Shown here piece after piece: positions 1-60,109 of a DNA stretch of 64,000 nucleotides. Source of the DNA: an uncultured Candidatus Saccharibacteria bacterium (lineage in GTDB: Bacteria; Patescibacteriota; Minisyncoccia; Phycocordibacterales; CSBR16-119). The translations under genes and the position numbers were made by a program. The stretch spans positions 85,560 through 149,559 of the forward strand of contig CAZLAD010000002.1 in NCBI GenBank assembly GCA_964557535.1. The letters are read 5' to 3'. How positions within the stretch are numbered: the first letter of the stretch is position 1; each line of letters begins with the position of its first letter. The notes below the pieces were generated by a model that did not search any database, was not told the DNA's origin, and saw only the letters and a list, made by a program, of their open reading frames with translations.

Positions 1-47
1 AATCTCTAACGGGACAAGTAACCCCAAGTATATACAAAAATAGCCTT

Positions 48-8855: not shown

Positions 8856-8867
8856 ACCTGGTGAAAA

Positions 8868-8900: not shown

Positions 8901-8913
8901 TTAAGACAATTAA

Positions 8914-9417
8914 CTAAGGGGTTGGTTCACATCTGTACGGATCACTTGAAGTTCCGGCTCCTGCAATAGAATAATCAGTCGTAGCGGTTCCTCCTCCGGC
9001 AAAACCCTGAGAATCTACACAAAAGAATGTACCGTTTGCAAGCATTTGCATGTGAGCGGCCCAACTACCGTTATTAGAGTTGCAGTCGGCACCAGCGAGC
9101 GGACCATTTGAGCTGTTATCCCATTGTCCAACTTGTTTTGCGGCCGCTTCGAACAAGCCGTAAGGGTCAGATGTTGGAACGTTACAAACATCGTTATAAG
9201 AAAGAGTATCATCAAACATAATCTCCGCTTCGGCGCGCATGGAGGAGAGACTTCCCTTTGCACCAGCGTCACGGCCCTTGCTTCGAGCCGTTCCCAGAGA
9301 TGCGAGAACGATTGAGGCGAGGATACCGATGATCGCGACCACGACCAAAAGTTCAATTAGAGTGAAACCCTTCGCGTTGCTCAGGGCCTGCGGCCCCTTT
9401 TTAAATCCAAATTTCAT
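8914..9417 (-). CDS. major type IV pilin
   Basis: [21 protein letters not shown] canonical class III signal. 167 aa with C-terminal Cys pair. Followed by a strong terminator. Confidence 0.9.
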
Positions 9418-11788: not shown

Positions 11789-11817
11789 CCCGTTAGAGAT
11801 AGCAAACTTTCGTTTGC
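11789..11817 (-). promoter_or_regulatory. proximal half of the leader-helix motif (AUCUCUAACGGG-AUG) plus hairpin GCAAAC-GAAA-GUUUGC upstream of pilT
   Basis: CCCGTTAGAGAT sits directly 3' of the pilT start codon on the plus strand. The hairpin co-varies with the pilN copy. Confidence 0.5.
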
Positions 11818-11869
11818 GTATCTAATTTATTATTTTGTAAATAATCGACGACCATCTGATTTAATCTAA

Positions 11870-15071: not shown

Positions 15072-15767
15072 TTAACTTTGATTAGGCATCACATTAGAAG
15101 CATCATCTGTTGGTAATGTTGGCGATACGGGCAATGTTTCGGGTATTATTTCTGGCTCGTTCAATGATTGCTGTCTTTCTAGGAAAGATTCATACACGAC
15201 CAGAGACTTGTCCACAGAAAAAGTTAGGTTGAAAGAAATGTTCCCGAACTGATCAAGTGTAAAACTAGAAAATATTGGATTTTTAATGAAATTATTTTGA
15301 GCAAAGAGATCCGACTGCAATGCAATATAATTATAACCTTTTGCTTGACCGTTTATCTTTATATTAACAAGATTTGGATTTTGTTTATTGAATTCATAAG
15401 AGAAATCAGAATAACGAACTGTCGGAAGAGTAATTTCACCCAAAAGAGAAAATATAGGTGAAACAGCAACATGATTATCTAAAATTATCGTAGACGCCTT
15501 CATGCGCTTATCTAGAAGTTGGAGTTTTGTTATAAGTGTTGGCTCAAAAGCCGCTTTCGCTCTGACCAAAGATTCTTTGTAGGACTCCAGAGTATTTAAA
15601 AGAGAAGAACGATAGAAATAAACCCCTCCGGCACCCAAAATTGAAGCGATAAAAATCAAAAGCGCCAAAAGATTTAATAGACCACCAAAACCACCCCCCG
15701 AACGCTTTGGTTCGCGCTCTGCTATCGTTTTTTTAGGTACAAAAGATGTTTGAAATTCTTTATCCAT
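15072..15767 (-). CDS. pilN: PilN-like pilus assembly protein
   Basis: Single N-terminal TM after a basic cytoplasmic segment, periplasmic domain. Follows pilM. Confidence 0.6.
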   Translation of the reverse strand: MDKEFQTSFVPKKTIAEREPKRSGGGFGGLLNLLALLIFIASILGAGGVYFYRSSLLNTLESYKESLVRAKAAFEPTLITKLQLLDKRMKASTIILDNHVAVSPIFSLLGEITLPTVRYSDFSYEFNKQNPNLVNIKINGQAKGYNYIALQSDLFAQNNFIKNPIFSSFTLDQFGNISFNLTFSVDKSLVVYESFLERQQSLNEPEIIPETLPVSPTLPTDDASNVMPNQS

Positions 15768-15883
15768 CCCGTTAGAGATAGCAAATCTTTAGATTTGCGT
15801 ATCTTTTTTATTATTCTTTGAGTAATTCACGACCATATTTTTGTATCTTTTGTGATTAACTTTAACTATAACATCTCTAACGG
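15768..15883 (-). promoter_or_regulatory. structured 5' leader upstream of pilN, closed by the 12/11-bp helix CCGUUAGAGAU ... AUCUCUAACGGG, ending directly at the AUG
   Basis: Plus-strand CCCGTTAGAGAT at 15768-15779 and ATCTCTAACGG at 15873-15883. Internal hairpin GCAAAUC-UAAA-GAUUUGC. TAGAAT sits 10 nt upstream of the distal half. Confidence 0.6.
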
Positions 15884-15896
15884 TATCCATAAAATT

Positions 15897-17741: not shown

Positions 17742-17937
17742 TGGCGCTTTGTAGAACTTGAATTTTCTAACTCCAAAGAAGCGGGTTTTTGATGTTCTTG
17801 TACTTCCCGATCATCGATCTTCTATTTCTCACGAATATATTTTAGCATGTCTAAATAGTCGGTTTTTGTTTCGAATATCACCTGCTCGCGCGCCGACACC
17901 TCAATCAAATGACAAAAGTCATTTTCTTGAGTCATTG

Positions 17938-18024
17938 CGGAGACGAGAGGATTCGAACCTCCGAGGGCTTTTACACCCTACCTCGTTAGCAGTGAGGCGC
18001 TTTCGACCACTCAGCCACGTCTCC
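17938..18024 (-). tRNA. tRNA-Ser (anticodon GCU), class II with long variable arm
   Basis: Reverse complement folds as acceptor GGAGACG/CGTCTCC, D-loop GAGTGGTCGAA, anticodon loop CUGCUAA, long variable arm, T-loop GGAGGTTCGAATCCTCT. No encoded CCA. Confidence 0.85.
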
Positions 18025-18182: not shown

Positions 18183-18269
18183 GGAGGATTGGATGAGTGG
18201 TTTAAATCAGCGGTTTACTAAACCGCCGGCTGGTAAAACGGCCCGTGAGTTCGAATCTCACATCCTCCG
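18183..18269 (+). tRNA. class II (Ser-like) tRNA with apparent ACU anticodon (unusual; possible pseudo- or atypical tRNA)
   Basis: Acceptor GGAGGAT/ATCCTCC, T-arm GTGAG-TTCGAAT-CTCAC, anticodon arm GCGGT-UUACUAA-ACCGC, long variable arm. Shares the GAGTGGT D-loop with the neighbouring tRNA-Ser. Confidence 0.6.
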
Positions 18270-18289
18270 CAAATTTTCTAAAAAAGCAA

Positions 18290-19552: not shown

Positions 19553-20695
19553 CTATAACCCTGTAGAAAATATCGCATTTAGTATCTCTTTTGTTTTTGG
19601 CCCCACTACCCCATCAGCTTTTAGACCATTGGCTTTTTGAAAATCCTTGACGGCCTGAAGCGTACACGGACCGAAGTTTCCTGTAAACGGACAGTCGTTC
19701 ATCGTCTTTGGCGGGTAGAAACCAATTTCGCGCAGACCATATTGGAGCGCCATAACGTCATTTGACAGACTCTTGCCTATCGGCTCTTTGCCCCATGAAT
19801 ACAAAAGGTTCTTCATGTCTTGGCGACCATTTAGATAATCATAAATTCCTCGTGTAGTGGCTCTAGCCATAACAAACGCCGACAAATCAAAAACCTCCGG
19901 TCGAGTTTGCGGTTCATAAATGTACGAATACTCGACGAGAACGCTCGGAATCTTTAGCGTTCGGTTTGACCCGAGGGCAATCAGATTAAAATCGGTAATA
20001 ACACCATTTTCGTCGGCCTTGTTCTTCTCGAGAGGCATGTCACTCACCGGAAAAGTCTGTTTCATTCTCTGGCCTATCGCTTCACCGATAATGATGGCGT
20101 CGTCGTGGTTTGGTAAATTTTCATCTGGGACATAAATAGAAAATCCAGAAAAGTCTCCACGCTCTTTTGGAGAATGGTTCGTGTCATCATTGAAATGAAT
20201 ATTGATAATGATATCGAAATCATTTTCACTGGCCCATTTGTTCACCCCATATAGTTGATAAGCAACTGTCGGCAACGCATCCGCGTGCGGAACTTGTTCG
20301 CCGGGATCAATTTCATTTTCACTAATCGCATTTTTAGTGCTTTCTTTGTGATTTTTTATAAATCTATTTATCTCTCGTTCTTCTTCATCAAAATATTCCT
20401 GAATTTCTGGTATATAGCCGTCGTCGTTTCTAGTTACCGTAACGCTTAATTGTGGATCTTTGGTTAGCTCTTCTTTGATCTTGTTGGCAAGTTGTAAATT
20501 TATAGCCTGCTCACTAACACCGTTGAAATATGCCCCCGAATATTTCTTGTCGTGACCTGGAATGACGAGAATTTTAATTGTTTCTCCCGCACGATAACGT
20601 AGAGCGTTTGGCAAAAACGCTTCTTCGCCAAATGACACTTTTGGTAAAAAACCAAAGATTATTATGATGGCGAAAATATTTAATTTCATAATCAA
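19553..20695 (-). CDS. N-acetylmuramoyl-L-alanine amidase (Amidase_3-like) with C-terminal peptidoglycan-binding domain
   Basis: Signal/TM N-terminus, KILVIPGHD zinc-amidase region, C-terminal LQAVKDFQKANGLKADGVVGPKT PG_binding_1 motif. Confidence 0.75.
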   Translation of the reverse strand: MIMKLNIFAIIIIFGFLPKVSFGEEAFLPNALRYRAGETIKILVIPGHDKKYSGAYFNGVSEQAINLQLANKIKEELTKDPQLSVTVTRNDDGYIPEIQEYFDEEEREINRFIKNHKESTKNAISENEIDPGEQVPHADALPTVAYQLYGVNKWASENDFDIIINIHFNDDTNHSPKERGDFSGFSIYVPDENLPNHDDAIIIGEAIGQRMKQTFPVSDMPLEKNKADENGVITDFNLIALGSNRTLKIPSVLVEYSYIYEPQTRPEVFDLSAFVMARATTRGIYDYLNGRQDMKNLLYSWGKEPIGKSLSNDVMALQYGLREIGFYPPKTMNDCPFTGNFGPCTLQAVKDFQKANGLKADGVVGPKTKEILNAIFSTGL

Positions 20696-21498
20696 TGTTT
20701 TATAGGCAAAACAACCCGAAACGTACTGCCGTGTCCCATGCCAGCAGAATACGCGGAAATCTCGCCGTGCAAAGCATGTACTATTTGCCTAGCCAAATAC
20801 AACCCAAGTCCCGAACCAGCCTCGGAAGCTTTCCCGGCTTTGCCACGCAAAAATTTATCAAAAAGCTCCGAAAGCTCCGCCTTATCAATACCAGGACCTG
20901 TGTCTTTGACCTCGACAACGGCCTTGTGATCTGGCTTCTTGAAACTTACACTGATTTCTCCTTTGTTGGTGTACTTAATAGCGTTATCAATCAAATTAAC
21001 AAAAACCTGTCGCAATTTATTTTGATCTGAACGAATAAAACATGGATTGTTATCGCCCTGAAAGACGAGTCTTAGACCCTTGGCCTCGGCCGACATGCGA
21101 AATTCCTCGACCAAACGACCAACGAAATCATGCAAATCAAATTCTTCGAATTTCATGACCATTCCGCCTTGTTCCATTTTTGAAATATCGAGTAAATCAT
21201 TGACTGTGCCGATGAGATCGTCAGTGGTCAAAAGCAGGTGGTTTACCGTTTCTATTGAAAACTTTTCTTTGAGTGAATCTAGTCCCCATTTTATAGAAGT
21301 AAGTGGACTGCGTAACTGATGTGTCGCAAAAGACAAAAATTCGTTTTTCCTTGCATCTAGATCTGTGAGGTTGGTGTTTAATTTCTGGAGCGCGTCTTTC
21401 TGTCGGCCTTGAGCTCTAGAATTTCTGATCAACAAAGCACCGATTGCCATCATAACAAGAAGCGTTCCAGTCAAAACGATATTTAGGGTTGTCTCCAT
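20692..21498 (-). CDS. sensor histidine kinase
   Basis: N-terminal TM, HisKA H-box (ATHQLRSPLTSI), N-box NLIDNAIKYT, DTGPGI, GSGLGLYLARQIV. Overlaps the amidase start by 4 nt. Confidence 0.88.
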   Translation of the reverse strand: METTLNIVLTGTLLVMMAIGALLIRNSRAQGRQKDALQKLNTNLTDLDARKNEFLSFATHQLRSPLTSIKWGLDSLKEKFSIETVNHLLLTTDDLIGTVNDLLDISKMEQGGMVMKFEEFDLHDFVGRLVEEFRMSAEAKGLRLVFQGDNNPCFIRSDQNKLRQVFVNLIDNAIKYTNKGEISVSFKKPDHKAVVEVKDTGPGIDKAELSELFDKFLRGKAGKASEAGSGLGLYLARQIVHALHGEISAYSAGMGHGSTFRVVLPIKH

Positions 21499-21565: not shown

Positions 21566-21681
21566 CCCGTTAGAGATGTTTTGTTTTACATAACTACGAA
21601 AGCGGTGACGTTACTATTTATAAAAGGTTTATCAAAATTTAATCAAGGTACGTCAGCCCAAGACTGACTATCTCTAACGGG
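21566..21681 (+). promoter_or_regulatory. structured 5' leader closed by a 12-bp long-range helix (CCCGUUAGAGAU ... AUCUCUAACGGG), ending 4 nt before the ATG
   Basis: Perfect 12-nt inverted pair at 21566-21577 and 21670-21681. Internal hairpin GUCAG-CCCAAGA-CUGAC at 21652-21668. See findings. Confidence 0.6.
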
Positions 21682-22042: not shown

Positions 22043-22065
22043 ACGACCCTTAAAAATCTCCGCAC

Positions 22066-22223
22066 TAAAAACAAGATGTTTTGCCTTAAAAGTCCGTTCT
22101 GTTTGAGGAGTGTCTAAACACTCCGAGTTAACGGATCTTTTTGGCTTAAAACATCTTGTTTTTAGGCTAGATTTTTTCTGGGTCTTGAATTTTTGGTTAC
22201 TTTTGCTTCAAGGCAAAAGTAAC
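22066..22223 (+). promoter_or_regulatory. nested hairpin region between the receiver gene and recG (terminator or attenuator-like)
   Basis: 18-nt perfect inverted repeat CTAAAAACAAGATGTTTT at 22066-22083 and 22148-22165, enclosing hairpin GGAGTG-TCTAAA-CACTCC (22107-22124). A third hairpin GTTACTTTTGC-TTCAAGG-CAAAAGTAAC lies at 22196-22223. Confidence 0.5.
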
Positions 22224-24494: not shown

Positions 24495-25718
24495 TTATTT
24501 TTTAGCTAACTTCTCTTGCAATGAATTAATAATGACTGCATTTGCTATGTTCTGCCAAAGAACGGCACTTTTACCAGTTCTATTAGGATTACTACCATAC
24601 TCTTTCGTGTGGGCTTCTAGGATTTGACCAACTAGTTTTGAACCGTGTTTCTCCAAAAAATCTTCTGGAGCAACAGCCCAATCAAGTTCACCTTCTCTTT
24701 CTTCGAGTAAGAAACGTAGAGATGCGAATATAGGCATTATAAAACCTTTTGCAAGCCTGTAATCAACAATCTCTCCTGTGAAAGGTAACTTAATCTCTAA
24801 TGCTTTTTTATTTTCACCTTTCCCTCTATATTTTTCAACGCCTTTTATTCTACCGAAAATTTTAGTACCTGAATTTTTGGCGTAATCTTCAAAATTTTTG
24901 TAGAGATATTCGTATAATCTGACAATAGAAGGAAGTAGATGGTATATCTTTTCATAGGATGAACGATTTTTCTTGTTCGACCATTTTTTGAAACAAGAAT
25001 TGAGACCTGTATATGTAACTGTTGGTTGATTTGTTTCCGAATAAAGTTCTCTGTTAAGGGCCGTCATAAGTGCTATGAGTTCTTCGATTGGGAATACCGC
25101 TTCGTCGTCGCCTATATCCTGATTTTGATAGAAAATTATTTTCCTACTCAAACTTCCTAGTGCTTCTTTTATTGGATCAAACTCTTTATTTTGGTTACTT
25201 ATTGATTTTTCATCAACCTGCACACTTGTATTTCTCGCCCTCGCCAATTTAGTAGCAAATTCATCTGCCCCTTCTATGACTGTTACAAATATGGGTAGAT
25301 CTTTGAGTGATTCATCTTTTATTACTTTCTTCAATACTTCATATGTATGTCCCCCATCGACAAGACCTCCTTCTGAATTACCTTCTTCATCCTGACCAAA
25401 ATCAATAATTACTCTCTTGTCTTGATCATTAACTGCTGGAAAGTGTACCTTTTTAGCAATTAAGAGTAGTCCTCTGTTACAATCTGTGAAATATTCTGGT
25501 TCATCTTCCAAGGTTTCTAACATTTGTTTACATGGTTTACTATTGATATCAGGTTTTCTCGGATTAGGTACTAGTGGTATATCTTGAGGAAGGTCTTTAA
25601 GTAAAATAAAAAGGAAATGCGTCTTTATGACATCATTCCCCTCTGTGTCGTTATAATGCAACTTGCGAGTTATAGTCCTAGATTGTGAGTAATTAAACTC
25701 AAGATTTGTGTTCGTCAT
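24495..25718 (-). CDS. orphan 407-aa protein in an AT-rich islet next to a tRNA; possible ParB/Srx-fold (DGQHR/DGQQR-like) defence-associated protein
   Basis: GC about 36% against about 40% in the flanks. Motif GLVDGGHTYEV resembles the DGQHR/DGQQR signature of DndB/DUF262 ParB-like nucleases. Sits between the recG terminator and tRNA-Ile, with no integrase. Confidence 0.5.
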   Translation of the reverse strand: MTNTNLEFNYSQSRTITRKLHYNDTEGNDVIKTHFLFILLKDLPQDIPLVPNPRKPDINSKPCKQMLETLEDEPEYFTDCNRGLLLIAKKVHFPAVNDQDKRVIIDFGQDEEGNSEGGLVDGGHTYEVLKKVIKDESLKDLPIFVTVIEGADEFATKLARARNTSVQVDEKSISNQNKEFDPIKEALGSLSRKIIFYQNQDIGDDEAVFPIEELIALMTALNRELYSETNQPTVTYTGLNSCFKKWSNKKNRSSYEKIYHLLPSIVRLYEYLYKNFEDYAKNSGTKIFGRIKGVEKYRGKGENKKALEIKLPFTGEIVDYRLAKGFIMPIFASLRFLLEEREGELDWAVAPEDFLEKHGSKLVGQILEAHTKEYGSNPNRTGKSAVLWQNIANAVIINSLQEKLAKK

Positions 25719-25861
25719 ATATTTCTTATCTATAAAATTAATAATTTTACGTCAACTCAAAGCAGGGTTACTTTGGCCAACTTTGATCTGCGACAAGGTT
25801 GTCTTCAAATCAACATTGAAATTATATACTATGGAATATCTATTGTCAAAAAAATATTTTG

Positions 25862-25936
25862 TCCACCCTCCACGACTCGAACGTGGGACCCTCGAGGTAT
25901 AAGCTCGATGCTCTAACCAACTGAGCTAAGGGTGGT
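25862..25936 (-). tRNA. tRNA-Ile (anticodon UAU)
   Basis: Reverse complement: acceptor CCACCCU/AGGGUGG, D-arm GCUCAGUUGGUUAGAGC, anticodon arm UCGAG-CUUAUAC-CUCGA, T-arm CCACG-UUCGAGU-CGUGG, discriminator A. Confidence 0.8.
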
Positions 25937-29440: not shown

Positions 29441-30157
29441 ATCCAACGTATATTCCCCCACCCTTGTCCTCTTTATCGAATATGCGATCCCGCCCATTTC
29501 ATTTGCAATACTTCGAACATAAGTTCCCGAGGAACAATTTATTTTAAATTTTGCGATTTGGAATTTCTCTGGAGCATTTTCTAAAATGTTTTTCCAAGCA
29601 CTTTTGATTTCTTCTTGACGGAAATCACCATGAACGAGATTGATTCGGTGCTGAATTTCCATCAAAACATCTTTCGCGGAAATGAAGTGCTCCTCCAATT
29701 TATCTAAACTAAAAATCTCAATTTCTTTTGTCGGCGCCTCAAAATCAACTCCATCTCGCGCCATTTGAAAAAGTGGTTTTCCGTCTACCGTCTTTGACGA
29801 ATACGCCGGATATTTTTGTGTATGTTTTCCAACAAAACTATCCTCGCTACCCATTACCATTTTCTCGCGGTCGCGAATGTTTGGTAATCTTGGGATTCCG
29901 AGGATGTCGTATGTGTCGGTTTGAACTCCGAACAAAACTTCGAAAATGTATTCTTTATCGAGACCCAAATACTCATCTTTCTTCTTGCATTCCTCGCCCG
30001 TGAGCACTATCAAAAGCCCCTCAGCCATTGGGTCCAGCCGTCCAGCATAAGTCATGGGAACACCATTGTATTCTGAATTCTCTGCGCGAAATCTCTCCAG
30101 ACACTCAAGCGGCGTTTCGCCAAGATTTTTGTAGAGTTTTAAAACAATCTTATTCAT
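29438..30157 (-). CDS. truB: tRNA pseudouridine(55) synthase TruB
   Basis: GRLDPMAEGLLIVLTGE catalytic Asp motif. 239 aa. Confidence 0.88.
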   Translation of the reverse strand: MNKIVLKLYKNLGETPLECLERFRAENSEYNGVPMTYAGRLDPMAEGLLIVLTGEECKKKDEYLGLDKEYIFEVLFGVQTDTYDILGIPRLPNIRDREKMVMGSEDSFVGKHTQKYPAYSSKTVDGKPLFQMARDGVDFEAPTKEIEIFSLDKLEEHFISAKDVLMEIQHRINLVHGDFRQEEIKSAWKNILENAPEKFQIAKFKINCSSGTYVRSIANEMGGIAYSIKRTRVGEYTLD

Positions 30158-31023
30158 TTGATAATAGTTATTAGGACTATTCCTAGGGTAAAAAGAATTA
30201 ACGACAAAATCTTTCGTTTTGTTAACTTCTCTTTCAAAACGAACACGCCCGACAATACGGCAAACAAGAATCCGGTTGATTGTACAGCCAAGACATAGGA
30301 CGTTGGACCACTAGAGAAAGCAAACATCGTCGATACATAACTAAGTGCCATAAAAATTCCAAATAAAGTCAGTGGCCAGAATTTTGGTTTTATTTTTTGT
30401 AAGTCATCTTTCTTTTTATAAATAAAAATAAGTATTAAGAAAATTATAGAAGCCCCCAAAGTATTCACGAAACTATAGAAGACAGGCGTTGACACAGTTA
30501 ACGAAACTTTGTCCAGAGTTGATCCGATAGCCATACAAAACATAGCAATAATCATATAGACGACCGCCCTATTATATTTTTTACCGCTATCGCCCGAGAC
30601 ATTTTCTGAAAGTAAAAGATATGTAGCGTACACAATAACAAAAATACCAATAATTCCAACAAGGCTCGGCACCTCTTTAAGTAAAATAAAAGATGTCCCA
30701 ATATTAAAAACCGGAAGTATAGCTTTTATTGGAGTAACTTGGACGATTTCACCCTCTCGTATGGCTTTATATAAAAAGTGTGTTTGTACTGGATATAAAA
30801 CAAACCAGATAATCAAAAGTGGCCACCAGAAACGCCAAGGCAAGTGCCAAATATCGTTAGGTATTGGTAAAAACAAAAACAGCAACAACATGGGTAGTAG
30901 ACAAAAAGTTTGCATGACAAAACCCATACCGAAATTGCTGAAAGAACCCGTAAGACTTTTTTCATACGTTCTCCGAGCACCAGAAGTAATAGCACTAAAT
31001 AAAGCAAAAGGGAGCCATGGCAT
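30154..31023 (-). CDS. EamA/DMT-family membrane transporter
   Basis: About 10 TM helices in two repeated halves. Overlaps the truB start by 4 nt. Confidence 0.6.
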   Translation of the reverse strand: MPWLPFALFSAITSGARRTYEKSLTGSFSNFGMGFVMQTFCLLPMLLLFLFLPIPNDIWHLPWRFWWPLLIIWFVLYPVQTHFLYKAIREGEIVQVTPIKAILPVFNIGTSFILLKEVPSLVGIIGIFVIVYATYLLLSENVSGDSGKKYNRAVVYMIIAMFCMAIGSTLDKVSLTVSTPVFYSFVNTLGASIIFLILIFIYKKKDDLQKIKPKFWPLTLFGIFMALSYVSTMFAFSSGPTSYVLAVQSTGFLFAVLSGVFVLKEKLTKRKILSLILFTLGIVLITIIK

Positions 31024-31084: not shown

Positions 31085-31678
31085 ATGTTATCTTATAGTG
31101 AAGTTCGAAAGAACAAAGTAATTATGTACGAAGGCGAGCCTTGGCTTGTCGTTGACGCGCACGTTTTTAGAAAGCAACAACGAAAACCAGTAAACGCCAC
31201 CAAACTCAAGAACCTCATTTCTGGGCGTATGGTCGAGACGACTTTTCACGTCTCGGACAAAGTCGAAGAAGCCGACATGGGTAAACGCACAATCAAATTC
31301 CTCTTCCAGAAAAAAGATGAGCTATGTTTCGTCGATCCGAAAAACCCAGCCGATCGCATGTTTCTCTCTGGCGAACTTCTCGGTGACCAAATAAAATTTT
31401 TAAAAGAAAATACCGAAGCAACCGCCAGCATCTTCACCAACGATGACGACGAGGAACAAATTATCGCTATCGAGCTCCCGGTCAAGATGGCTTTCGAAGT
31501 CAAAGATGCGCCACCATCGATCAAGGGCGACACCGCAACCGGCGGCAACAAAGTTGTGACTTTGGAAAACGGTGCGAAGCTCGACGTTCCCCTATTCGTG
31601 GAAGCTGGAGATAAAATCATCGTAAACACTGAAACTGGAGAATATGTCGAAAGGTACAAGGAAAGTTTTGATGCGTAG
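31085..31678 (+). CDS. efp: elongation factor P
   Basis: 197 aa, three-domain EF-P, N-terminal KOW-like region. Confidence 0.9.
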   Translation: MLSYSEVRKNKVIMYEGEPWLVVDAHVFRKQQRKPVNATKLKNLISGRMVETTFHVSDKVEEADMGKRTIKFLFQKKDELCFVDPKNPADRMFLSGELLGDQIKFLKENTEATASIFTNDDDEEQIIAIELPVKMAFEVKDAPPSIKGDTATGGNKVVTLENGAKLDVPLFVEAGDKIIVNTETGEYVERYKESFDA

Positions 31679-33627: not shown

Positions 33628-34896
33628 TTAGTATTGTCTCATTGAAACCTGTCCTTCGACTTTCTTCAAAATATCCAGGATGACCGACACGACGATTAGC
33701 ACTGCCGTACCTCCGATGGCCAAAGTCGAAAGCCCTGTCACTTGTTGCATAATTATCGGAAGCACAGCCACAAGACCAAGGAAAATCGCACCCAAAAAAG
33801 TGATTCGAGAAACAATCTTACCAATATACTCACTCGTCGAAACTCCTGGACGAATACCTGGAATAAACGCACCATTTTTCTGTAAATTTGTAGCAACAGA
33901 ATCCGGATCAAAAGTTACTGCTGTGTAGAAATATGTAAACAAAAACACCAGAACAAAGTACGCCAGAGCATAAATCCAAGTAGATTGCATAAACCAAGTC
34001 ATGGCTTTTGAAACAGCCAACAAGAACGCATGTGACGAATTAGCGAAAAAGTTAGCAATAAGTTGTGGAAACAAAAGTAACGATAGCGCAAAGATGACTG
34101 GCATAACTCCGGCCTGGTTGATACGTAGTGGTAGGTATGATGATCTAGCTGCCGCAGTTCCTCCGGCTCTAGCCTGATTTGCGTATGTTATTGGAAGCAA
34201 TCTTTCAGCTTCGGTGATGATAATAATTCCCGCAATAAGAATTAAAGCGACGACGACGAATCCGATATAAGTTAGAAGTTGTGCCTTGTCAAAAGTAAAT
34301 ATAAGCTGACTAATTTGTCCTGGGAGCGCTGCCACAATACCCGCAAAGATAATAACGGATACACCATTTCCAATACCTCGTTCTGAGATAAGCTCACCCA
34401 ACCAAACCAAAAACATAGATCCGGCCATAACAACAATCATTGCGAGAGCTTTCTCGTAAGCGGTCAAAGCTTCCAGAACGCCATTTTGAAAAAGAATAGT
34501 TAGAAGCGCGTATCCTTGGATAAGAGAAAGTGGGACTGTCAGATATCTAGAATATTTGGCAAATTGTGTTCGTCCCATCTCGCCCTCTTCATGATACATT
34601 GACTTAAGTCTAGGAGACATAAGAGTCAAGAGTTGCATGATAATTGATGCAGTAATATAAGGACCGACTCCCATCATTACAATAGACAAGGCTGACAATC
34701 CACCACCAGAGAAAATATTTAAAACACCCAGAAGCTGGTTACTCTCGAGGAATCCTTGTAGACGAAAAGCATCAACACCTGGTATCGGAATAGTCGAAAG
34801 CAATCTAAATATTGCCAATATTAACAAAACAAAAATTATTTTCTTGCGAAGATACTTGTCCGTGAAAACTAATTTTATTTTTTGCCAAAGTGTCAT
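33628..34896 (-). CDS. secY: preprotein translocase subunit SecY
   Basis: 10 TM helices, typical SecY. 422 aa. Confidence 0.95.
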   Translation of the reverse strand: MTLWQKIKLVFTDKYLRKKIIFVLLILAIFRLLSTIPIPGVDAFRLQGFLESNQLLGVLNIFSGGGLSALSIVMMGVGPYITASIIMQLLTLMSPRLKSMYHEEGEMGRTQFAKYSRYLTVPLSLIQGYALLTILFQNGVLEALTAYEKALAMIVVMAGSMFLVWLGELISERGIGNGVSVIIFAGIVAALPGQISQLIFTFDKAQLLTYIGFVVVALILIAGIIIITEAERLLPITYANQARAGGTAAARSSYLPLRINQAGVMPVIFALSLLLFPQLIANFFANSSHAFLLAVSKAMTWFMQSTWIYALAYFVLVFLFTYFYTAVTFDPDSVATNLQKNGAFIPGIRPGVSTSEYIGKIVSRITFLGAIFLGLVAVLPIIMQQVTGLSTLAIGGTAVLIVVSVILDILKKVEGQVSMRQY

Positions 34897-34897
34897 T

Positions 34898-34959
34898 CCA
34901 TTAGTAAATTAAATTTGTAATTTTTTTATCAACTTATCTTCCGCTGATTTACTAACGGG
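34898..34959 (-). promoter_or_regulatory. variant leader helix upstream of secY (CCCGUUAGUAAA ... UUUACUAAUGG-A-AUG)
   Basis: Same architecture as the pilN and receiver leaders, with compensatory changes on both strands. Confidence 0.55.
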
Positions 34960-34969
34960 ACAAGTCATT

Positions 34970-35419
34970 TTACTTTACTGAACCGCCAGCTTTTTCAATT
35001 GCTGTTTTTGCTGTTCCGGAAATTTCTAAACCTAGAATTTTGAATTTCTTTTTGACTTCTCCTCTTGCGAGAATTTTTACGTTAGGATTCTTGCCGCGAA
35101 CTTTTTTGACCAGACTCTTTTCCAGAAGCGCACTCAAATTTATCGTATCTCCATCTTTGAAATTTTCTTCTAGAACGTCAATGTTTACGACTGTTGGTCG
35201 AATTTTTGATCCATCGACACTTGCTGATCTATTTTTACCGTGTCCGCGAAGTTTTGGAAATTTCTTGATGGTGTCACGAAGCTCAGGACGAACTCCATGA
35301 GAACCGTGTGCCCACTGACCTTTTGTTCCGCGTCCAGAAGTCTTGCCACGCTTGCCTCCTCGGCCGATAAGCTTGGTTTTCTTGTTCTTGGTTTTTCTTA
35401 CTAAATTATTTGTTTGCAT
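34970..35419 (-). CDS. rplO: 50S ribosomal protein L15
   Basis: Gly/Lys/Arg-rich N-terminus (GRGGKRGKTSGRGTKGQ). Confidence 0.93.
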   Translation of the reverse strand: MQTNNLVRKTKNKKTKLIGRGGKRGKTSGRGTKGQWAHGSHGVRPELRDTIKKFPKLRGHGKNRSASVDGSKIRPTVVNIDVLEENFKDGDTINLSALLEKSLVKKVRGKNPNVKILARGEVKKKFKILGLEISGTAKTAIEKAGGSVK

Positions 35420-37427: not shown

Positions 37428-37697
37428 TTACCAAGATGACTTGCGAACACCTGGAACTTCACCTATAGAAGCTAATTCGCGGAATTTGATACGAGAAAGT
37501 CCAAAGTCTCGTAGATATCCTCGTGGACGACCAGTGATCCCGCAACGATTCTTTACGCGTGTTGGACTAGAATTTTTTGGAAGCTTCTGAAGACCTTCGT
37601 AGTCTCCGGAAGCCTTAAGAGCTGCTCTTTTAGCAGCGTATTTTGCAACCATTTTGATGCGCTTATTATTTCGCGCGATTACTGATTTTTTAGCCAT
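37428..37697 (-). CDS. rpsN: 30S ribosomal protein S14 (long form)
   Basis: 89 aa, C-terminus [33 protein letters not shown]. Confidence 0.93.
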
Positions 37698-38133
37698 TGT
37701 TTTTTAGCTGTTAGCTTCTGGCCATTAGCTATTAGCTAAAGGCTAATGGCTAATGGCTCCGGTTCAGTAATATCTCACGTTTTTTCTTGAAGGTCCCGAG
37801 GGGCATTCAAGGAGAAACGCGGATTAAACTGAACTGAGGGCTATATTAGCAGATTGAGATTTTATGTCAATCAAAATAATTTGAGCCCCGGTCTTGTTAG
37901 ACCAGGGCCCCATAGCTGACACGTAAAGTGCTTTTGATAGCGACTTGAATAGCCAAAGGACTTTGGTCCTCGGCAGGGGCAAGAGCACCTGCAAGAATGC
38001 TCTGCCACCCGCCGAGACCATACGACTTGTTGGCATGAACTCTATCATACTCCAACCATATTGTCAAGCGATTTTGGACAATCTTTTACTACCCTGAATT
38101 TATTCATTCCAACGTTCCTCATTGTCTCCACCG

Positions 38134-41622: not shown

Positions 41623-42090
41623 TTAGCTGTTAGCTGTTAGCTTTTGGCTTTTAGCTTTTTTGGCGACCCCCGCTCGGGCTGGCTTTTTGACTGTAGCCTT
41701 CTTGGCAACGGGTTTTTCGGCTTTTTCTACTTTGATCTCTGCTACTTCCTTGGCACCAGCAGATTTTTTGGAAGCCAAAGTTACCACAACATGGCAAGTT
41801 CTTTTATTTATCGGATATCCGGAACCACGAGCACGAGGTCGCATACGTTTCAATGTGATGCCTTTGTTGACCTCGATACTTTTGACCATCAAATCAGCAG
41901 TGTCGACACCAGAATTTACGCGAGCATTAGCGATCGCAGAATCAATCAATTTTTTGATTGGGTCAGCAGAGCGTTTCGGCATAAAAGACAAAATCAAAGA
42001 CGCATTCTGAGCAGATTTACCAACGACGGCCTTCGCCACTAGGCGGACCTTTCGAGGTGATTGTCTGTAGTTTTTAAGAATGGCTTTCAT
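41623..42090 (-). CDS. rplV: 50S ribosomal protein L22 (with C-terminal Ala/Lys extension encoded by a TAGC-type repeat)
   Basis: 155 aa. The C-terminal tail ...KKAKSQKLTANS is encoded by the GCTAA repeat block at 41625-41665. Confidence 0.92.
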   Translation of the reverse strand: MKAILKNYRQSPRKVRLVAKAVVGKSAQNASLILSFMPKRSADPIKKLIDSAIANARVNSGVDTADLMVKSIEVNKGITLKRMRPRARGSGYPINKRTCHVVVTLASKKSAGAKEVAEIKVEKAEKPVAKKATVKKPARAGVAKKAKSQKLTANS

Positions 42091-42678: not shown

Positions 42679-43182
42679 ATGAAGCACCTGCTCTTCCTTT
42701 TTTCCTGTGCGTTGTTCATCTTCTCCTGCGCCAACCCTTCCCTCGAGGAAGAAGCGATGGGTGAGATCACACAGCTCCAACCCAACAACCAAAGCGCATC
42801 TATGGAACCAACGAGTGCAATAGATGAGCACCTGCGGTTCAAACTCCCCCAAGGTTCATACCAGAATCTGGTCTATCTGATGGAGTTGAATGCAATAATC
42901 GGCGAGCATGCTGACCTGACCACTTGGTGGTATGCGACCCCACCGATAAATGGGTACGTTCACGACCTGAACGTAATACAAGGACCTACACCTGAGGAAT
43001 GGCGTCAACTCCAAACTCCTCGATGGATCCTGGTCCATGTGAGATCCAAAGGTGCACCTTGGGGAGAGAAATTGTTTTCCTACAGTCTTCTGCCGAGCGA
43101 TGACATCCTCTTCGATTCACCCGCAGACACGGTCCATGCAGACATGATCCGAGATGCTATAAACGAAATACTGAAGGAGTAA
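42679..43182 (+). CDS. putative lipoprotein (167 aa), high-GC, inserted antisense within the S10 operon
   Basis: Signal peptide with a lipobox-like LFSCA/IFSC. GC about 50% with atypical codons. Has its own promoter and terminator. Confidence 0.6.
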   Translation: MKHLLFLFSCALFIFSCANPSLEEEAMGEITQLQPNNQSASMEPTSAIDEHLRFKLPQGSYQNLVYLMELNAIIGEHADLTTWWYATPPINGYVHDLNVIQGPTPEEWRQLQTPRWILVHVRSKGAPWGEKLFSYSLLPSDDILFDSPADTVHADMIRDAINEILKE

Positions 43183-44093: not shown

Positions 44094-44215
44094 TTGATTA
44101 TCGTTTTTAAAACACTACTTATCGGCAAGTGCAACCATAATTTGTAAATTAAGAAGCCTTGAGCCCTTAGCTTTTAGCCGTTAGCTAACGGCCAATGGCT
44201 AAGAGCTAACAGCTC

Positions 44216-48864: not shown

Positions 48865-48932
48865 GAAAGCCATTAGCCTTTAGCCATTAGTTTTTAGCTA
48901 ACGGCCAACGGCTAAGAGCTAAAAGCTATAAT

Positions 48933-49527: not shown

Positions 49528-49647
49528 ACCCACACACCAAGTTTTTGATTAAACCAGTTGCGATCATACGTTTTAGATAAAAAGATAATTATTAGTTACA
49601 CACTTAGAATTATTTAAAACTTGGTGTGCGGGTAAAATAATCTAAAT

Positions 49648-50962: not shown

Positions 50963-52666
50963 CTATTTTATCTCTACAATCCTAAGCCTGATTTCTTTCT
51001 TATATCCAAAAACGGATTTTTCAATTGTGGCATAGAGATTTATACGTCCGTCGGGTTTTACGCGATCGCCAAAATCTTCGGGCTTTTTGAAAAAACTTAT
51101 CGCCTTCACGGCTTGCCCGCGAGAATTTTTGAAAGATAGTTCCAAATGATCCTTGGCCTTGCCGAAAATTTTCACATCAAAAATTTCAACGTCTTCGAAA
51201 AGAAATGTTGGTTTCGGATTCCCTGCCCCAAATGGCGCCAGGCGATCTATTTCGTTAAAAGTTTTTTCATTTACTTCATCGAGCGTTAGTATCGAATCAA
51301 AAGTAATTTGTTCGTCAGAATTTACTGAGACTTTCTCGGTTTTGTCATACGCTTCGACAAGTCTTTCCTCCAAAAAATGAATTTCTTCGTGCGAGACAGA
51401 GAATCCTCCGGCGCCAGCATGTCCGCCAAACTCCAGTAATGAATTTTCCCTCAGATTTGTCATGAGCTCGACAATGTTAACTGAGCCATCCGAACGACAT
51501 GAGCCTTTGATGACCGTTCCGCCCTCAAGTCCCCAGACGAAAGCCGGCTTTTTGTACTCGTCGACAATTTTCCCGGCGACTAGTCCCAAAACCCCAGCGC
51601 GCCACGTCGGATCACCGACGACCATAATACTGCGCTCAGCACGTTCCGGATGAGAAAAAGTTTTTTTGACCGATTTCATCATCGTCGCGACGAGAATTTT
51701 CCTCTCGTCATTCATCTTGGTCAGATTCATGGCGGCAAGTCCGGCCACGCCTTCGTCACTGGCCGACAGAAGTTCGTAGGCACGCATTGGAGAGTCCATT
51801 CTCGAGGCCGCGTTTAATTTCGGACAAATTGAAAACGTCACGTCGTCTTCTTGGAGATTTCTCGAATCAACATTAATCCGACGCAAAAGTTGTAAAAGTC
51901 CCGGCCGACGCGTCTGGCGCAAAACCTTCAGCCCGTAGTAAGCGAGCGCGCGGTTTTCCCGCACAAGCGGAACCATGTCGGCGAGCGTTGCGAGTCCTAC
52001 CATATCAAGCATCCATTTATCCGCGCCTTTCTTTACACCAAATTCTTCGCCGTACTTTTGGAAAAATCCTTGGACCAGTTTGAAAAAAACTCCCGAACCA
52101 CAAAGCATGTTGTCGGGATATTCGTCGCCTGGTTGTTTGGGATTTAGTATTAAACAATTTGGCAAAACGTCTTTCGGTAAATGATGATCGGTGATGATAA
52201 CTTCAAGTCCGAGACTCTTGGCAAATTCGACATCTTCAACCGCCGTGATGCCGAGGTCGATCGTGATAATAAGCTTCGCACCACGTTCGGCAATCTCCTT
52301 GAGCGCTTCAGGATTGAGACCGTAGCCTTCTTTGTGTCTATCAGGGATATAGATTTCAAAATTTTCATATCCAACACTTTTAAAAAAATCGTTCGCTATC
52401 GTCGCCCCCGGAATACCATCGCAGTCATAGTCAGCAAATATGCAAATTCTCTCGTCACCCGTAATAGCCTGATGAACCCTCTCGACGACAGCGTCCATGT
52501 TCTTCATGAGATACGGATCATAGACGTGATTTTCATATGAAGGATTTAAGAATTCCTCGGCCTCGTCACTCGAAGAAATATCGCGATTAAAAAGAAGTCT
52601 TCGCGTCAGAGGCGAATATTTATCAAGCTCTTTTTCAACTTTTTTCGGAATTTCCTTCAAAGGCAT
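50963..52666 (-). CDS. recJ: single-stranded-DNA-specific exonuclease RecJ
   Basis: DHH and DHHA1 motifs (ICIFADYDCDGIPGA, DHH), C-terminal OB region. 567 aa. Confidence 0.9.
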   Translation of the reverse strand: MPLKEIPKKVEKELDKYSPLTRRLLFNRDISSSDEAEEFLNPSYENHVYDPYLMKNMDAVVERVHQAITGDERICIFADYDCDGIPGATIANDFFKSVGYENFEIYIPDRHKEGYGLNPEALKEIAERGAKLIITIDLGITAVEDVEFAKSLGLEVIITDHHLPKDVLPNCLILNPKQPGDEYPDNMLCGSGVFFKLVQGFFQKYGEEFGVKKGADKWMLDMVGLATLADMVPLVRENRALAYYGLKVLRQTRRPGLLQLLRRINVDSRNLQEDDVTFSICPKLNAASRMDSPMRAYELLSASDEGVAGLAAMNLTKMNDERKILVATMMKSVKKTFSHPERAERSIMVVGDPTWRAGVLGLVAGKIVDEYKKPAFVWGLEGGTVIKGSCRSDGSVNIVELMTNLRENSLLEFGGHAGAGGFSVSHEEIHFLEERLVEAYDKTEKVSVNSDEQITFDSILTLDEVNEKTFNEIDRLAPFGAGNPKPTFLFEDVEIFDVKIFGKAKDHLELSFKNSRGQAVKAISFFKKPEDFGDRVKPDGRINLYATIEKSVFGYKKEIRLRIVEIK

Positions 52667-52683: not shown

Positions 52684-52773
52684 GCGGGGCCAGATTGCGG
52701 TTTTGACAATCCGAGGACTATAGTGCGTAGACACGCTTTCGCAGGATTGGAAAAATCTGCAATCTGGCCCCGC
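52684..52773. repeat. GC-rich hairpin element C (second copy of the B family)
   Basis: 13-bp perfect closing stem GGGGCCAGATTGC/GCAATCTGGCCCC. Core GAGGACTATAGTGCGTAGACACGCTTTCGCAGGA. Confidence 0.65.
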
Positions 52774-53211: not shown

Positions 53212-53347
53212 GCAAAACCTATTTAAATTTTTCTTCAACATCACCCGTAGGGTGCGCGCTAGTGAAAGCTTGGTAATCTTTGGTCTCCCGAGTGCTCGGA
53301 GGGAGACTTTGGCGCGCATCTTGAAGAAAAATTTAAATAGGTTTTGC
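53212..53347. mobile_element. MITE-like element: perfect 27-bp terminal inverted repeats flanking an 82-bp GC-rich structured core
   Basis: Left GCAAAACCTATTTAAATTTTTCTTCAA (53212-53238), right TTGAAGAAAAATTTAAATAGGTTTTGC (53321-53347). The core contains GCGCGC pairs and a CTCCCGAG/CTCGGAGGGAG hairpin. Between convergent HIT and pgk. Confidence 0.5.
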
Positions 53348-53358
53348 GAAGTTCCTTG

Positions 53359-54477
53359 CTACTGTTCTAGTGCTTGTATCCCCGGCAATGTTCCCTTGGC
53401 CAAAAATTCTAGCATTGCCCCACCACCAGTTGAGACAAATGAAATTTTGTCTTGAAGTCCCATTTCTTTGACCAAGTTCACGGTGTCGCCGCCACCGAGA
53501 ATTGACGTGGCGCCAGATTCGGCAATCGCTCGAAGAACTTTTTTACTGCCATCGGCATAACCTTCTTCATAAAGCCCAAGCGGTCCGTTCCAGAGAATTG
53601 TCTTGAATGTTGGAATAGTTTTTATAAGCTCAGCCAAAGTGTTCGGGCCAACATCGACAATTACATCTTCTGCGACAATATTTGGAAGTTCCTTGGCCTC
53701 CCCGCCCCCAACCACAACATCAAAAGGAATTTTAATATGATCTTTGTTGAAAAATTCCGCAACTTTAGCATCTTTGTCTACCAAAGATTTACCAACGTGC
53801 AAGCCAATCGTTTGGAAAAAATTGTTTGCAAGAGCGCCACCGATAAAAATCTGATCAGCGATCGTTTCAAACTTCCTGATCAAAGCAATTTTGGTATCAA
53901 ATTTCGCCCCGCCCAGGATAAATAGGAACGGGTGTTCAGGCTTTTCGATTGCTTTACCCAAATTCGCAATTTCTTTCTGTAGCCAAAATCCCGCATACGC
54001 CTGTAGATAGTCCGGCACGCCGACGATAGAGGCGTGAGCCCGATGCGACACCGCGAAAGCATCGTTGACATACATGTCGGCAAGCGAGGCCAAGAAACTT
54101 GCGAACTTCTCATCATTTTTCTCTTCGCCGTCGTTTTGTCGCAAATTTTCAAGGAGGATAACATCACCCGGCATCATATCCTGCACAATCGCCCTGATAG
54201 TATCGTGATCCCATGTCGGCACAAAATTTACTTTGACGAATTGTTGTAAATATTCGGCAATAGGTTTCAAAGATTCTTTTTTATCTCTGCCTATATGGCT
54301 CATGACTATCACTTTCGCTCCGCCTTTTTGCAAAAAATTGATAGTTTCTAGACTTTTCTGTATGCGCCAATCTTCACTTGCATCCACGGTGCCGTTTTTG
54401 CCAAGCGAAACATTGAAATCCACGCGCACGAGCACTTTCCTTTCTTTTAAATTTGTAACTTCTTGGATATTTTTCAT
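53359..54477 (-). CDS. pgk: phosphoglycerate kinase
   Basis: 372 aa, RVDFNV..., hinge and C-terminal nucleotide-binding motifs. Confidence 0.92.
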   Translation of the reverse strand: MKNIQEVTNLKERKVLVRVDFNVSLGKNGTVDASEDWRIQKSLETINFLQKGGAKVIVMSHIGRDKKESLKPIAEYLQQFVKVNFVPTWDHDTIRAIVQDMMPGDVILLENLRQNDGEEKNDEKFASFLASLADMYVNDAFAVSHRAHASIVGVPDYLQAYAGFWLQKEIANLGKAIEKPEHPFLFILGGAKFDTKIALIRKFETIADQIFIGGALANNFFQTIGLHVGKSLVDKDAKVAEFFNKDHIKIPFDVVVGGGEAKELPNIVAEDVIVDVGPNTLAELIKTIPTFKTILWNGPLGLYEEGYADGSKKVLRAIAESGATSILGGGDTVNLVKEMGLQDKISFVSTGGGAMLEFLAKGTLPGIQALEQ

Positions 54478-55247
54478 TACTTGTTTGATTCTGACGTGAT
54501 TTTGATAATTTCACCAAAAAGTTTCGGTGTCAGGCTCGCTCGTCCGACAAGGAAACCATCGACGCCTGAGGTTTTCAAAATATCTTCGGCGTTGTTTGTC
54601 GAAACTGATCCGCCGTAAATAATTTTAACCGGCGGGACACTCGAGGTTTTGTAAATATCACCGACAATACGTTTGATCAATATCACGATTTCTTCTACTT
54701 CTGACGGCTTCGCATCACGCTTGGCGTTCTCGCCTATTGCCCAGACGGGCTCGTAAGCAACAATCACGTCTTTGACTCGCGACTTCGGCACGTCTTTGAA
54801 ACCTTCGGTTAATTGAAGTTTGAGAAGTCCCAGATATTCCAAATTCGGATCGCGTTTGGCCTCACCGATGCAAAGAATCGGCCTGACACCGACGGCGAGG
54901 GCGGTTTTCACTTTCTTGTTTATGAAGATATTGTCCTCTCCCATCGCCCGGCGTTCAGAGTGGCCGATGATGGCGTATTTGATCTTGGTTTCAAGAAGCG
55001 CCGAGTAGCCGGTAGAACCAGTATGTGCACCGTTTGGTTCTGGGAAAAAGTCTTGAGAGCCGAGAATGGCGGGCTTTGATGAAGCCTTGAGGCTCTCTAG
55101 GAATATAACTGGCGGACAAACCACGACTTCGACGTTTTTGAATTTTTTGGCGAATTTTTTGGTTTCGTTTAGGTAAGATTTGGCGAGTTTCAGGGTGTCA
55201 GGATTCGCCTTCCAGTTAGCCACAATGAGTTTTTTGTCGGATTTCAT
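54477..55247 (-). CDS. tpiA: triosephosphate isomerase
   Basis: ANWKAN, IGHSERR, AYEPVWAIG motifs. Confidence 0.93.
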   Translation of the reverse strand: MKSDKKLIVANWKANPDTLKLAKSYLNETKKFAKKFKNVEVVVCPPVIFLESLKASSKPAILGSQDFFPEPNGAHTGSTGYSALLETKIKYAIIGHSERRAMGEDNIFINKKVKTALAVGVRPILCIGEAKRDPNLEYLGLLKLQLTEGFKDVPKSRVKDVIVAYEPVWAIGENAKRDAKPSEVEEIVILIKRIVGDIYKTSSVPPVKIIYGGSVSTNNAEDILKTSGVDGFLVGRASLTPKLFGEIIKITSESNK

Positions 55248-56298: not shown

Positions 56299-56437
56299 TA
56301 CTCATTTGACGAAAATCCTGTTTTCGTTTATTATTAGTACGTTATTGTCCTGGCTCGCGCCGGGATTTATTGTTAAAAGAGGCATTACAATTAAATAAGC
56401 TAAGGGCCAATGGCTAAAAGCTAACGGCTCAAAACAT

Positions 56438-59326: not shown

Positions 59327-59384
59327 TGTAGAATCAATCCATTACAAGCTAACTGCTAAAAGCTAACAACTAATAGCTCCAAAA

Positions 59385-59975: not shown

Positions 59976-60011
59976 GCGGAACAAAACATAATTTAAAAAG
60001 ACAATACGGAG

Positions 60012-60090
60012 AAAGGTCTGCCTTTTGAAGGACAGACCTTTCGAGTCTTTAGCGGCTCGCTGTTTACAAGCGAGAACGCGTGTCTTTTTT
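60012..60090 (+). terminator. clpP 3' hairpin cluster ending in ACGCGUGUCUUUUUU
   Basis: Hairpin AAAGGUCUGCC-UUUUGAA-GGACAGACCUUU (60012-60040), also found at 5170-5200. A second hairpin and a U-tract follow. Confidence 0.6.
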
Positions 60091-60109
60091 AATTATGTTT
60101 TGCGGAGCG

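Follow-up and report, generated by a model that had tools for sequence, protein, structure and literature searches.

Short palindromic insertions that spread through bacterial genomes, and helices that hide the start codon of a gene in its mRNA, are known from separate systems. Correia elements (NEMIS) of Neisseria carry 26-bp repeats, duplicate a TA, have conserved interiors, lie in either orientation and show no start-codon register. Rickettsia palindromic elements (RPEs) are tolerated in the expressed regions of reduced genomes, whereas in the E. coli rpmI-rplT pair and the MS2 coat-replicase pair a helix covers a start until upstream translation opens it. To our knowledge, bacteria of the Candidate Phyla Radiation (CPR, or Patescibacteria), with their tiny streamlined genomes, are not known for active repeat families, and their translation initiation is poorly understood. 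Here, we analyse an inverted repeat directly before secY in a 64,000-nt stretch of contig CAZLAD010000002.1 (the whole stretch being called the window). The repeat proves to be a diverged member of a family of small, non-coding palindromic insertions, widespread in Paceibacteria and so far undescribed. The family very probably represents a mobile insertion element resembling the miniature inverted-repeat transposable elements (MITEs), of which the secY repeat is one copy.

The secY repeat and its family

In the window, secY (33628..34896, minus strand; Pfam SecY, E = 8.8e-101), whose product has its closest matches in metagenome-assembled genomes of Patescibacteria/Paceibacteria, follows rplO, the gene for L15 (34970..35419, minus strand; Ribosomal_L27A at the orthologous position). 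The minus strand reads, in order, rplO TAA, A, ATGAC, TTGT, CCCGTTAGTAAA, a 39-nt interior, TTTACTAATGG, A and the secY ATG. The distal arm CCCGTTAGTAAA (34959..34948), which is the 5' strand of a helix termed P1 here, begins 10 nt past the rplO stop and contains the core TCCCGTTAG, an exact family match. The stretch TTTACTAATGG (34908..34898) and the next A (34897) belong to the proximal arm TTTACTAATGGA (34897..34908, minus strand), the 3' strand of P1, which is flush with the start codon of secY (34896..34894). These sequences and positions, read on the minus strand, are those given in a preliminary description of the locus, as are the 11 pairs including one G-U, to which we add a further pair between the T preceding CCCG and A 34897; in the canonical register, the outermost C at secY stands opposite an A. 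The G-U falls at pair 4 and results from the CUAAUGG of the proximal arm, common to the secY copy, window copy a (see below) and the loci L003 and L088 of other genomes. The interior (34909..34947, minus strand), earlier put at about 40 nt, is variable and A-rich and would be looped out once P1 forms. The TAAAAT box reported 7 nt upstream of the distal arm is indeed there (34972..34967) and overlaps the rplO stop (34972..34970), and RNAfold, proposed at the time as a check on the leader, predicts the helix, at -16.4 kcal/mol (z = -1.95).

The sequence AATGAC is found on both sides of the element, the upstream ATGAC (34964..34968, minus strand) directly repeating the five bases with which secY opens (34896..34892). 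From this upstream ATG, 1 nt past the rplO stop, runs an ORF (open reading frame) of 19 codons, MTCPVSKSAEDKLIKKLQI* (34909..34968, minus strand), which shares the secY reading frame and closes 12 nt before the secY ATG.

The window contains five copies of the family in its 64 kb. The consensus pair CCCGTTAGAGAT / ATCTCTAACGGG, or one half of it, is found at 2-13, 11789-11800, 15768-15779 / 15873-15884 and 21566-21577 / 21670-21681, and the inner arm bases AGAT are shared by four window copies. The 8-mer CCCGTTAG has six exact occurrences in the window, every one of them inside these elements, and when the window was scanned for TCCCGTTAG facing, at a distance of 20-180 nt, a partner able to make 12 or more of 13 pairs, the three complete elements alone came up. 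Chance does not account for the secY inverted repeat. Degenerate copies, sought in the window with up to three core mismatches, gave only noise.

Besides secY, the complete elements are copies c and d. Copy c (15768..15884, minus strand) lies between pilM and a pilN-like gene and has the arms ACCGTTAGAGAT / ATCTCTAACGGG around a 93-nt interior; it is preceded by ATGGAT (15885..15890, minus strand), a target-site duplication of the first bases of the gene (15767..15762). Copy d (21566..21681, plus strand) belongs to the 5' region of a gene for a response regulator (ATG 21686) and has perfect 13-bp arms and a 92-nt interior. Copy b (11789..11855, minus strand), before a pilT-like gene, is 5'-truncated: the proximal arm ATCTCTAACGGG (11800..11789) is kept, the distal arm is missing, and an internal ATGGT forms its beginning. 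Its 20-codon upstream ORF closes at the UAA inside the arm. Of copy a (2..13, minus strand), only the distal arm CCCGTTAGAGAT, after glmS, falls within the window. The remainder was taken from L210, a strain 100% identical to the window over the 8,891 nt of overlap, where the completed copy reads ACTTGT-CCCGTTAGAGAT-38 nt-ATCTTCTAATGGG-ATG of gatC. No target-site duplication accompanies copies a and d. In L210, gatC is called (8855-9217) from 10 nt past the glmS stop, upstream of the distal arm, and the element is thus read as coding. The longest glmS ORF itself (window 48-1937, minus strand) starts at a TTG, the real start being the ATG of MCGI at 1919.

Outside the window, protein-anchored loci of other Paceibacteria show the same architecture, T-CCCGTTAG-NNNN ... 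NNNN-CTAACGGG-A followed by ATG, before secY (L027), rplX (L017) and three genes near secY in L028, one of which is map. A metagenome scan with the pattern CCCGTTAG-N80-110-CTAACGGGATG, which leaves arm positions 9-12 free, matched at least 120 stretches and yielded at least 129 distinct elements; the family counts given in this article refer to the matches listed. The same architecture was sought in viral contigs with the element pattern, with 0 matches. No earlier description of the element was found in full-text literature searches, nor any Rfam match to it, either for the whole window at the gathering threshold, which returned only tRNA and tmRNA, or for copy d and five element loci in E-value mode, even at E = 10.

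Arms included, the elements span about 62-172 nt. Their interiors vary in length and sequence, fall into several structural types and contain no conserved ORF; beyond P1, a CU step preceding the 3' arm is the one thing commonly kept in the position-specific profile, and many copies also form a local hairpin just before that arm. Coding of the interior in frame was considered and rejected, as the lengths are not a multiple of 3 (58/44/27 by length modulo 3). A tRNA-like fold or an RNase P/Z mimic was likewise set aside, since ARAGORN finds no tRNA-like fold and the hairpin by the 3' arm has no T-loop consensus.

The arms behave differently. The outer 9 bp of the helix are strictly conserved, and the T before CCCG, which pairs with the A of ATG, is present in 127 of the 129 listed elements. 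Across 128 distinct copies, pairing within the 13-bp arms amounts to 94-100% and ends abruptly at position 13, which makes the helix 12 bp plus the T-A pair. Arm positions 9-12 are variable (A-U, G-C, U-A, C-G) yet paired in 94-99% of these copies, compared with 60-69%, and at most 77%, when partners are shuffled. This control upholds the proposal of a base-paired helix rather than protein half-sites. With respect to the window consensus, the secY copy is changed at positions 9, 10 and 12 on both strands and has kept its complementarity, so that the three compensatory substitutions first noticed there are genuine. The U-A pair at position 9 is rare, being limited to the window, L003 and the L028 map copy among the 128.

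The secY copy, copy a before gatC and the L003 copy form a short subfamily, with an ACTTGT flank (34960..34965, minus strand, at secY), a 38-39-nt interior and CUAAUGG; the flank also occurs in L183 and L190. Copy a and the secY copy differ at three pairs, namely by the compensatory substitutions just mentioned, which thus lie within one subfamily and one genome. L003 (80% SecY identity) is the only relative sharing the secY copy. Its arms, TCCGTTAGTAAA / TTTACTAATGGG, are the same variant as in the window and add no covariation, its flank is again ACTTGT, and its interior measures 38 nt. Flank and arms are identical at 28 of 30 positions (93%) between the two, compared with 61.5% identity in the element interior and 61% at secY third codon positions; the arms are therefore constrained. 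At secY, UUGU of the flank may wobble-pair with AUGA of the start and extend P1 across the start codon, and RNAalifold pairs columns 4-7 with 74-77, that is, the subfamily flank with the start. More generally, the flank of the AC(Y)YGU subfamily pairs with AUGR through wobbles only, in a manner specific to the sense strand. Sense folds are more stable than antisense folds in seven of eight cases, CUAAUGG giving another G-U. A pseudoknot between the ACUUGU flank and the interior was dropped: complementary stretches exist in the secY copy (copy e), L003 and L190, and not in L183, L088 and L093.

Filled and empty sites

The alignment of homologous secY upstream regions had been set beforehand as the check on the secY helix. 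Its two halves do stay complementary in L003, yet almost all relatives have no element to compare: in nearly all of them the rplO stop lies 4-15 nt from the secY ATG. The site is empty in the closest lineages (L201, L202/203 and L204; SecY 90-91%), where it reads TAA-N6-7-ATGACACTTTGG. Tight empty junctions are also found at pilM-pilN and pilB-pilT (L205-L207, from the same genomes or samples as the closest relatives). The reading of a leader helix therefore holds for the helix and not for the leader: what precedes secY is no conserved secY leader but the terminal repeat of a mobile insertion, the sites being empty in the closest relatives. Because the helix is such a terminal inverted repeat, its covariation may partly reflect different master copies and not compensation in place. 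Copies from the same genome are alike, as are b and c in the window, whereas those from different metagenomes are not, and the six weak orthologous element pairs of the metagenome set are too few for following evolution in place.

The pilN site permits a direct comparison. Empty, in three relatives, it reads TAG-tatttt-ATGGATAAAGAA, and filled, in the window, TAG-aatttt-ATGGAT-[A CCGTTAGAGAT ... CTAACGGG]-ATGGATAAAGAA; the difference is exactly the element plus ATGGA(T). In the family at large, ATGNN directly precedes the T in 88 of the 129 listed copies, and in 78 of these 88 NN are the two bases that follow the real ATG (shuffle control: mean 36.9, maximum 48). The duplication may measure 4-6 nt, its first base being in all cases the A of ATG. 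Furthermore, one gene in L198 (2604-2840) is preceded, after an SD-like (Shine-Dalgarno-like) AAGGAGG, by the tandem arrangement ATGAAC-[E1]-ATGAAT-[E2]-ATGAAC, in which two different elements are each flanked by ATGAA, which shows repeated insertion into a regenerated target; a second tandem pair of different elements before one gene is found in L176 around 10143.

In 116 of the 129 listed elements, the proximal ATG opens a long ORF, and the proteins encoded downstream are mutually unrelated. The element around position 597 of L199 is in the opposite orientation to its gene, whose start is RNase HII-like. It keeps the frame exactly, its proximal start is now a GTG, and translation seems to add it to the protein as 28 aa at the N terminus. 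Taken as a MITE, the family shows the small size, the non-coding interior, the terminal inverted repeats and the target-site duplications of such elements, as well as multiple copies and presence/absence polymorphism: five copies lie in the 64-kb window, whereas neither core sequence, CCCGTTAG nor CTAACGGG, occurs in roughly 97 kb from the closest relatives.

Host translation and the possible role of the helix

No SD-like motif was detected upstream of about 75 window genes. Their starts are preceded by A/U-rich sequence, and many first genes have a TAnnnT box resembling a -10 element that ends 6-8 nt before the ATG, for instance upstream of 50963-52666(-), 54477-55247(-), 31085-31678(+), 30154-31023(-) and 20692-21498(-). 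Such spacing corresponds to a leaderless geometry and suggests that leaderless mRNAs are widespread in the host. In 44 of 87 cases, the duplicated ATG likewise has a TANNNT box ending 6-9 nt ahead of it; transcripts would therefore start there and include both arms. The ORF that begins at the duplicated ATG remains open through the whole interior in 44 of 88 copies, compared with 13 and 9 for the other frames and with 9 of 41 in copies without an upstream ATG. Of these 44 ORFs, 24 end at the UAA within C-UAA-CGGG-AUG, which lies at -7, inside CUAACGGG, 17 overlap the start as AUGA and three are in frame. The lengths of the interiors, too, are unevenly spread over the three classes modulo 3 (58/44/27), a further sign of translation.

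These features suggest how a cell could tolerate such insertions. The element would be transcribed as part of the mRNA of the gene, and its ends would pair into the 12-13-bp P1, which would loop out the insertion and bury the A and U of the start codon, or the whole AUG in the ACUUGU subfamily. In a host without SD and with leaderless or tightly coupled starts, ribosomes would begin at the duplicated upstream AUG or arrive from the end of the upstream gene, here rplO. Their passage into the element would then open P1. Translation of the upstream frame would stop on the real AUG or beside it, either with the UAA of the proximal arm or with an AUGA overlap, and at secY with a UAA that lies 12 nt upstream; coupling or re-initiation would then allow the real ORF to be translated. 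At secY, ribosomes leaving rplO would meet the AUG just past its stop and translate the 19-codon ORF (34968..34909) through the distal arm. The helix would thereby both keep the insertion harmless and make translation of the gene depend on upstream translation. As to transposition, a DDE-type staggered cut anchored at the ATG could be followed by selection for start-codon sites. We regard this explanation as a whole, namely, an insertion element, masking of the start by P1 and upstream coupling, as probable, if only somewhat so; its masking and coupling step, which we infer from the arrangement of arms and reading frames, is tentative, with chances a little short of even. A bolder version, possible but doubtful, is that the elements render themselves harmless in the RNA much like introns, with translation as the means: folding would bring the original initiation site, either a leaderless 5' end or an upstream stop codon, next to the real AUG. 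The relay would then consist in read-through and re-initiation, in hopping across the base of the helix or in cleavage to a leaderless mRNA, and the specificity for start codons would stem from the requirement for a relay or from targeting tied to initiation.

Several observations weigh against the favoured explanation. A search of roughly 1.7 Mb of fetched DNA and of those window ORFs that were examined revealed no transposase and no autonomous element with these ends: no end pair 0.2-4 kb apart encloses a gene in the 1.7 Mb of fetched loci, and the 20 window proteins examined include neither a transposase nor a recombinase. A DNA enzyme cannot recognise start codons as such, and the near-exclusive siting at start codons needs strong selection or another targeting mechanism. 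In the SecY tree, L003 falls outside the clade formed by the window and its element-free relatives; the secY copy is thus common to the window and L003 and absent from the lineages between them, which calls for several precise losses (easy between flanking direct repeats), for two gains at one site or for transfer. In the main class, the mismatches at positions 9-12 show no G-U excess (seven G-U as against 12 A-C), and sense and antisense folding energies (-36.8 and -36.4) do not differ significantly; conservation of the arms could accordingly have its cause in the DNA alone. An early stop closes half of the upstream ORFs, and the relay is not obligatory, since copy b functions without a distal arm and L003 without an upstream ATG. 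Finally, the counts over family members are not phylogenetically independent. Between an RNA and a DNA role of the helix, these data thus discriminate weakly, the evidence for action in RNA being suggestive; wobbles specific to the sense strand are confined to the AC(Y)YGU subfamily, to which the secY copy belongs.

A rival reading is purely selfish DNA, whose arms would be terminal inverted repeats bound by a transposase and complementary through copying from master elements, with the mRNA helix and the upstream ORFs as tolerated by-products that play no part in expression. The target-site duplications, empty sites and tandem copies fit such an element, as do the missing G-U excess, the equal folding energies, the persistence of copy b without its distal arm and the inner arm bases that copies of one genome share. 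We nevertheless consider it unlikely, since the inner arm varies too much for one protein to read it and yet stays complementary, symmetric ends do not explain an orientation relative to the gene of 79 versus 9, the upstream ORF is open at four times the frequency of the control frames, and the pairing of the ACUUGU flank with AUG relies on wobbles of the sense strand alone. That P1 ends exactly at the AUG in nearly all copies, with nine strictly conserved outer pairs and a fixed length of 12-13 bp, would also suit an RNA processing site, at which a host RNase, either RNase III-like or sequence-specific and reading these 9 bp, would cut at the 3' base of P1 and release a leaderless mRNA beginning with AUG, in a host lacking SD and rich in leaderless-type promoters. 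A helix of 13 bp is short for RNase III, and the openness of the upstream ORF is left unexplained, which makes this reading quite unlikely. A self-cleaving ribozyme is improbable as well, as the profile has no conserved catalytic positions in the interior, nothing being conserved beyond P1 and the CU step, and no Rfam ribozyme matches.

A conserved covarying helix, the CU step and the local hairpin of many copies before the 3' arm are what a dedicated cis-regulatory leader would show, be it a riboswitch, a thermosensor or a protein-binding RNA inherited vertically across a regulon. This reading is very unlikely, and largely refuted already, given the empty orthologous sites of the closest relatives, the target-site duplications, the functionally unrelated genes downstream and interiors unrelated in sequence and length, with neither a conserved core nor an Rfam family. 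A DNA recombination site, either an inverton or a folded site of the attC type, has hardly any probability left: inverted repeats do surround a segment of about 40-150 bp beside gene starts, and a conserved core holding GTTAG / CTAAC with a variable but complementary remainder recalls attC, but the orientation is essentially fixed (79 versus 9), the core order GTTAG ... CTAAC is the reverse of that in attC (RYYYAAC...GTTRRRY), inversion does not yield direct ATGNN duplications, the 20 window proteins examined include no recombinase, and the elements, flanked by duplications, lie in housekeeping operons, unlike attC.

The preferred reading, of a mobile element that masks a start and ties it to upstream translation, would, if true, add a new way for such an element to couple to host translation. 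In any case, elements at the start codons of essential genes (secY, map, gatC, pilus genes) constitute a natural experiment on how starts are chosen without SD, and bear on how genomes tolerate insertions at their most sensitive positions. They are also strain-level markers, and gene callers misplace starts in their vicinity, as seen for gatC in L210.

Other repeats of the window and related systems

The window harbours further repeats. Arrays of the 7-nt unit GCTAANN lie just upstream of starts at 37690-37753, 41623-41651, 44155-44214, 48868-48927, 56399-56427 and 59348-59370, and three of them are preceded by the complementary (NNTTAGC)n, which results in long imperfect palindromes. A relative at 90% (L202) has a similar palindrome of another heptamer (NNNGCCT) before rplB. 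The idea that CUAAC serves as an SD-like motif tied to these arrays was set aside, as the arrays are not conserved in the 90% relative and at least one of them is located inside the coding tail of L22. Upstream of ligA (5139-5260, minus strand), a structure of about 120 nt with 21-nt arms ACGAAACCATTCATGAAAAGG / CCTTTTCATGAATGGCTTCGT and internal helices, for which Rfam gave no hit, looks like a structured RNA or another palindromic element. Between the response-regulator gene and recG (22065-22165), a perfect 18-nt inverted repeat, CTAAAAACAAGATGTTTT / AAAACATCTTGTTTTTAG, surrounds a hairpin with TCCGTT...AACGGA. recG is predicted to start at a GTG that this repeat overlaps, a call that may be wrong. 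Intergenic inverted repeats with 18-30-nt arms and 48-77-nt spacers, mostly between convergent genes, are present at 53212-53347, 59982-60102, 49528-49633 and 52684-52773; unrelated in sequence to the CCCGTTAG family, they may belong to other palindromic families or act as bidirectional terminators.

Three other features were noted. ARAGORN calls a tRNA-Ser(ACT) at 18183-18270, opposite a tRNA-Ser(GCT) at 17937-18024; the Rfam tRNA model at the gathering threshold reports only the latter, and the former call is doubtful or unusual. A 407-aa protein with an AIPR (abortive infection) domain is encoded at 24495-25718 (minus strand), beside a tRNA-Ile(TAT) at 25861-25935, and the two may mark a small defence island. 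The slot between rplB and rpsS, which in the window contains an opposite-strand ORF (42679-43182, plus strand), is occupied in close relatives by a hypothetical protein, a DUF3800 protein or two ORFs (L202 2668-3339, L203 1407-2725, L204 868-2828), and looks like a variable insertion hotspot.

As regards known systems, the family is closest in kind to Correia elements and MITEs, which are likewise small, non-coding and bounded by terminal inverted repeats, with target-site duplications and many copies. Correia elements, moreover, vary in presence between strains, lie beside genes and are co-transcribed with them, as would be the case here, to give an mRNA hairpin able to affect expression. The secY-type element departs from them in its 13-bp arms with four variable paired positions, its interiors unrelated between genomes, its duplication of ATG plus NN and its flush and polar placement. 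With RPEs, the family shares the character of palindromic selfish insertions tolerated in expressed regions of reduced genomes, and some of its copies read in frame as N-terminal extensions (L143, L145, L177, L199); RPEs, however, sit inside ORFs in frame, whereas secY-type elements occupy first codons and are mostly out of frame.

For the proposed mode of action, the nearest parallels are rpmI-rplT and the MS2 coat-replicase pair, where a helix likewise hides the start, upstream translation opens it and stop and start are adjacent (here UAA-CGGG-AUG or AUGA). Those helices are gene-specific and vertically inherited, whereas here a mobile element would bring the helix and its target-site duplication would create the upstream frame. 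Bypass elements (T4 gene 60; byp of Magnusiomyces mitochondria) are comparable as mobile insertions in a translated path, with matching take-off and landing codons and RNA structure at the gap. In a hypothetical bypass here, the matching codon would be the initiator AUG, and open upstream ORFs with nearby stops fit re-initiation better than hopping. Further likenesses are partial: attC sites combine a short conserved core with a variable remainder conserved in structure, but with the core order reversed and no duplication, and REPIN/RAYT repeats are hairpin-forming doublets of about 100 nt, but REPINs are extragenic and lack target-site duplications; neither an integrase nor a RAYT was seen among the window proteins examined. 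It is the start-codon register, the ATG-anchored duplication, the polarity and the variable but paired inner arm that set the element apart from Correia elements, from masked-start coupling and from RPEs.

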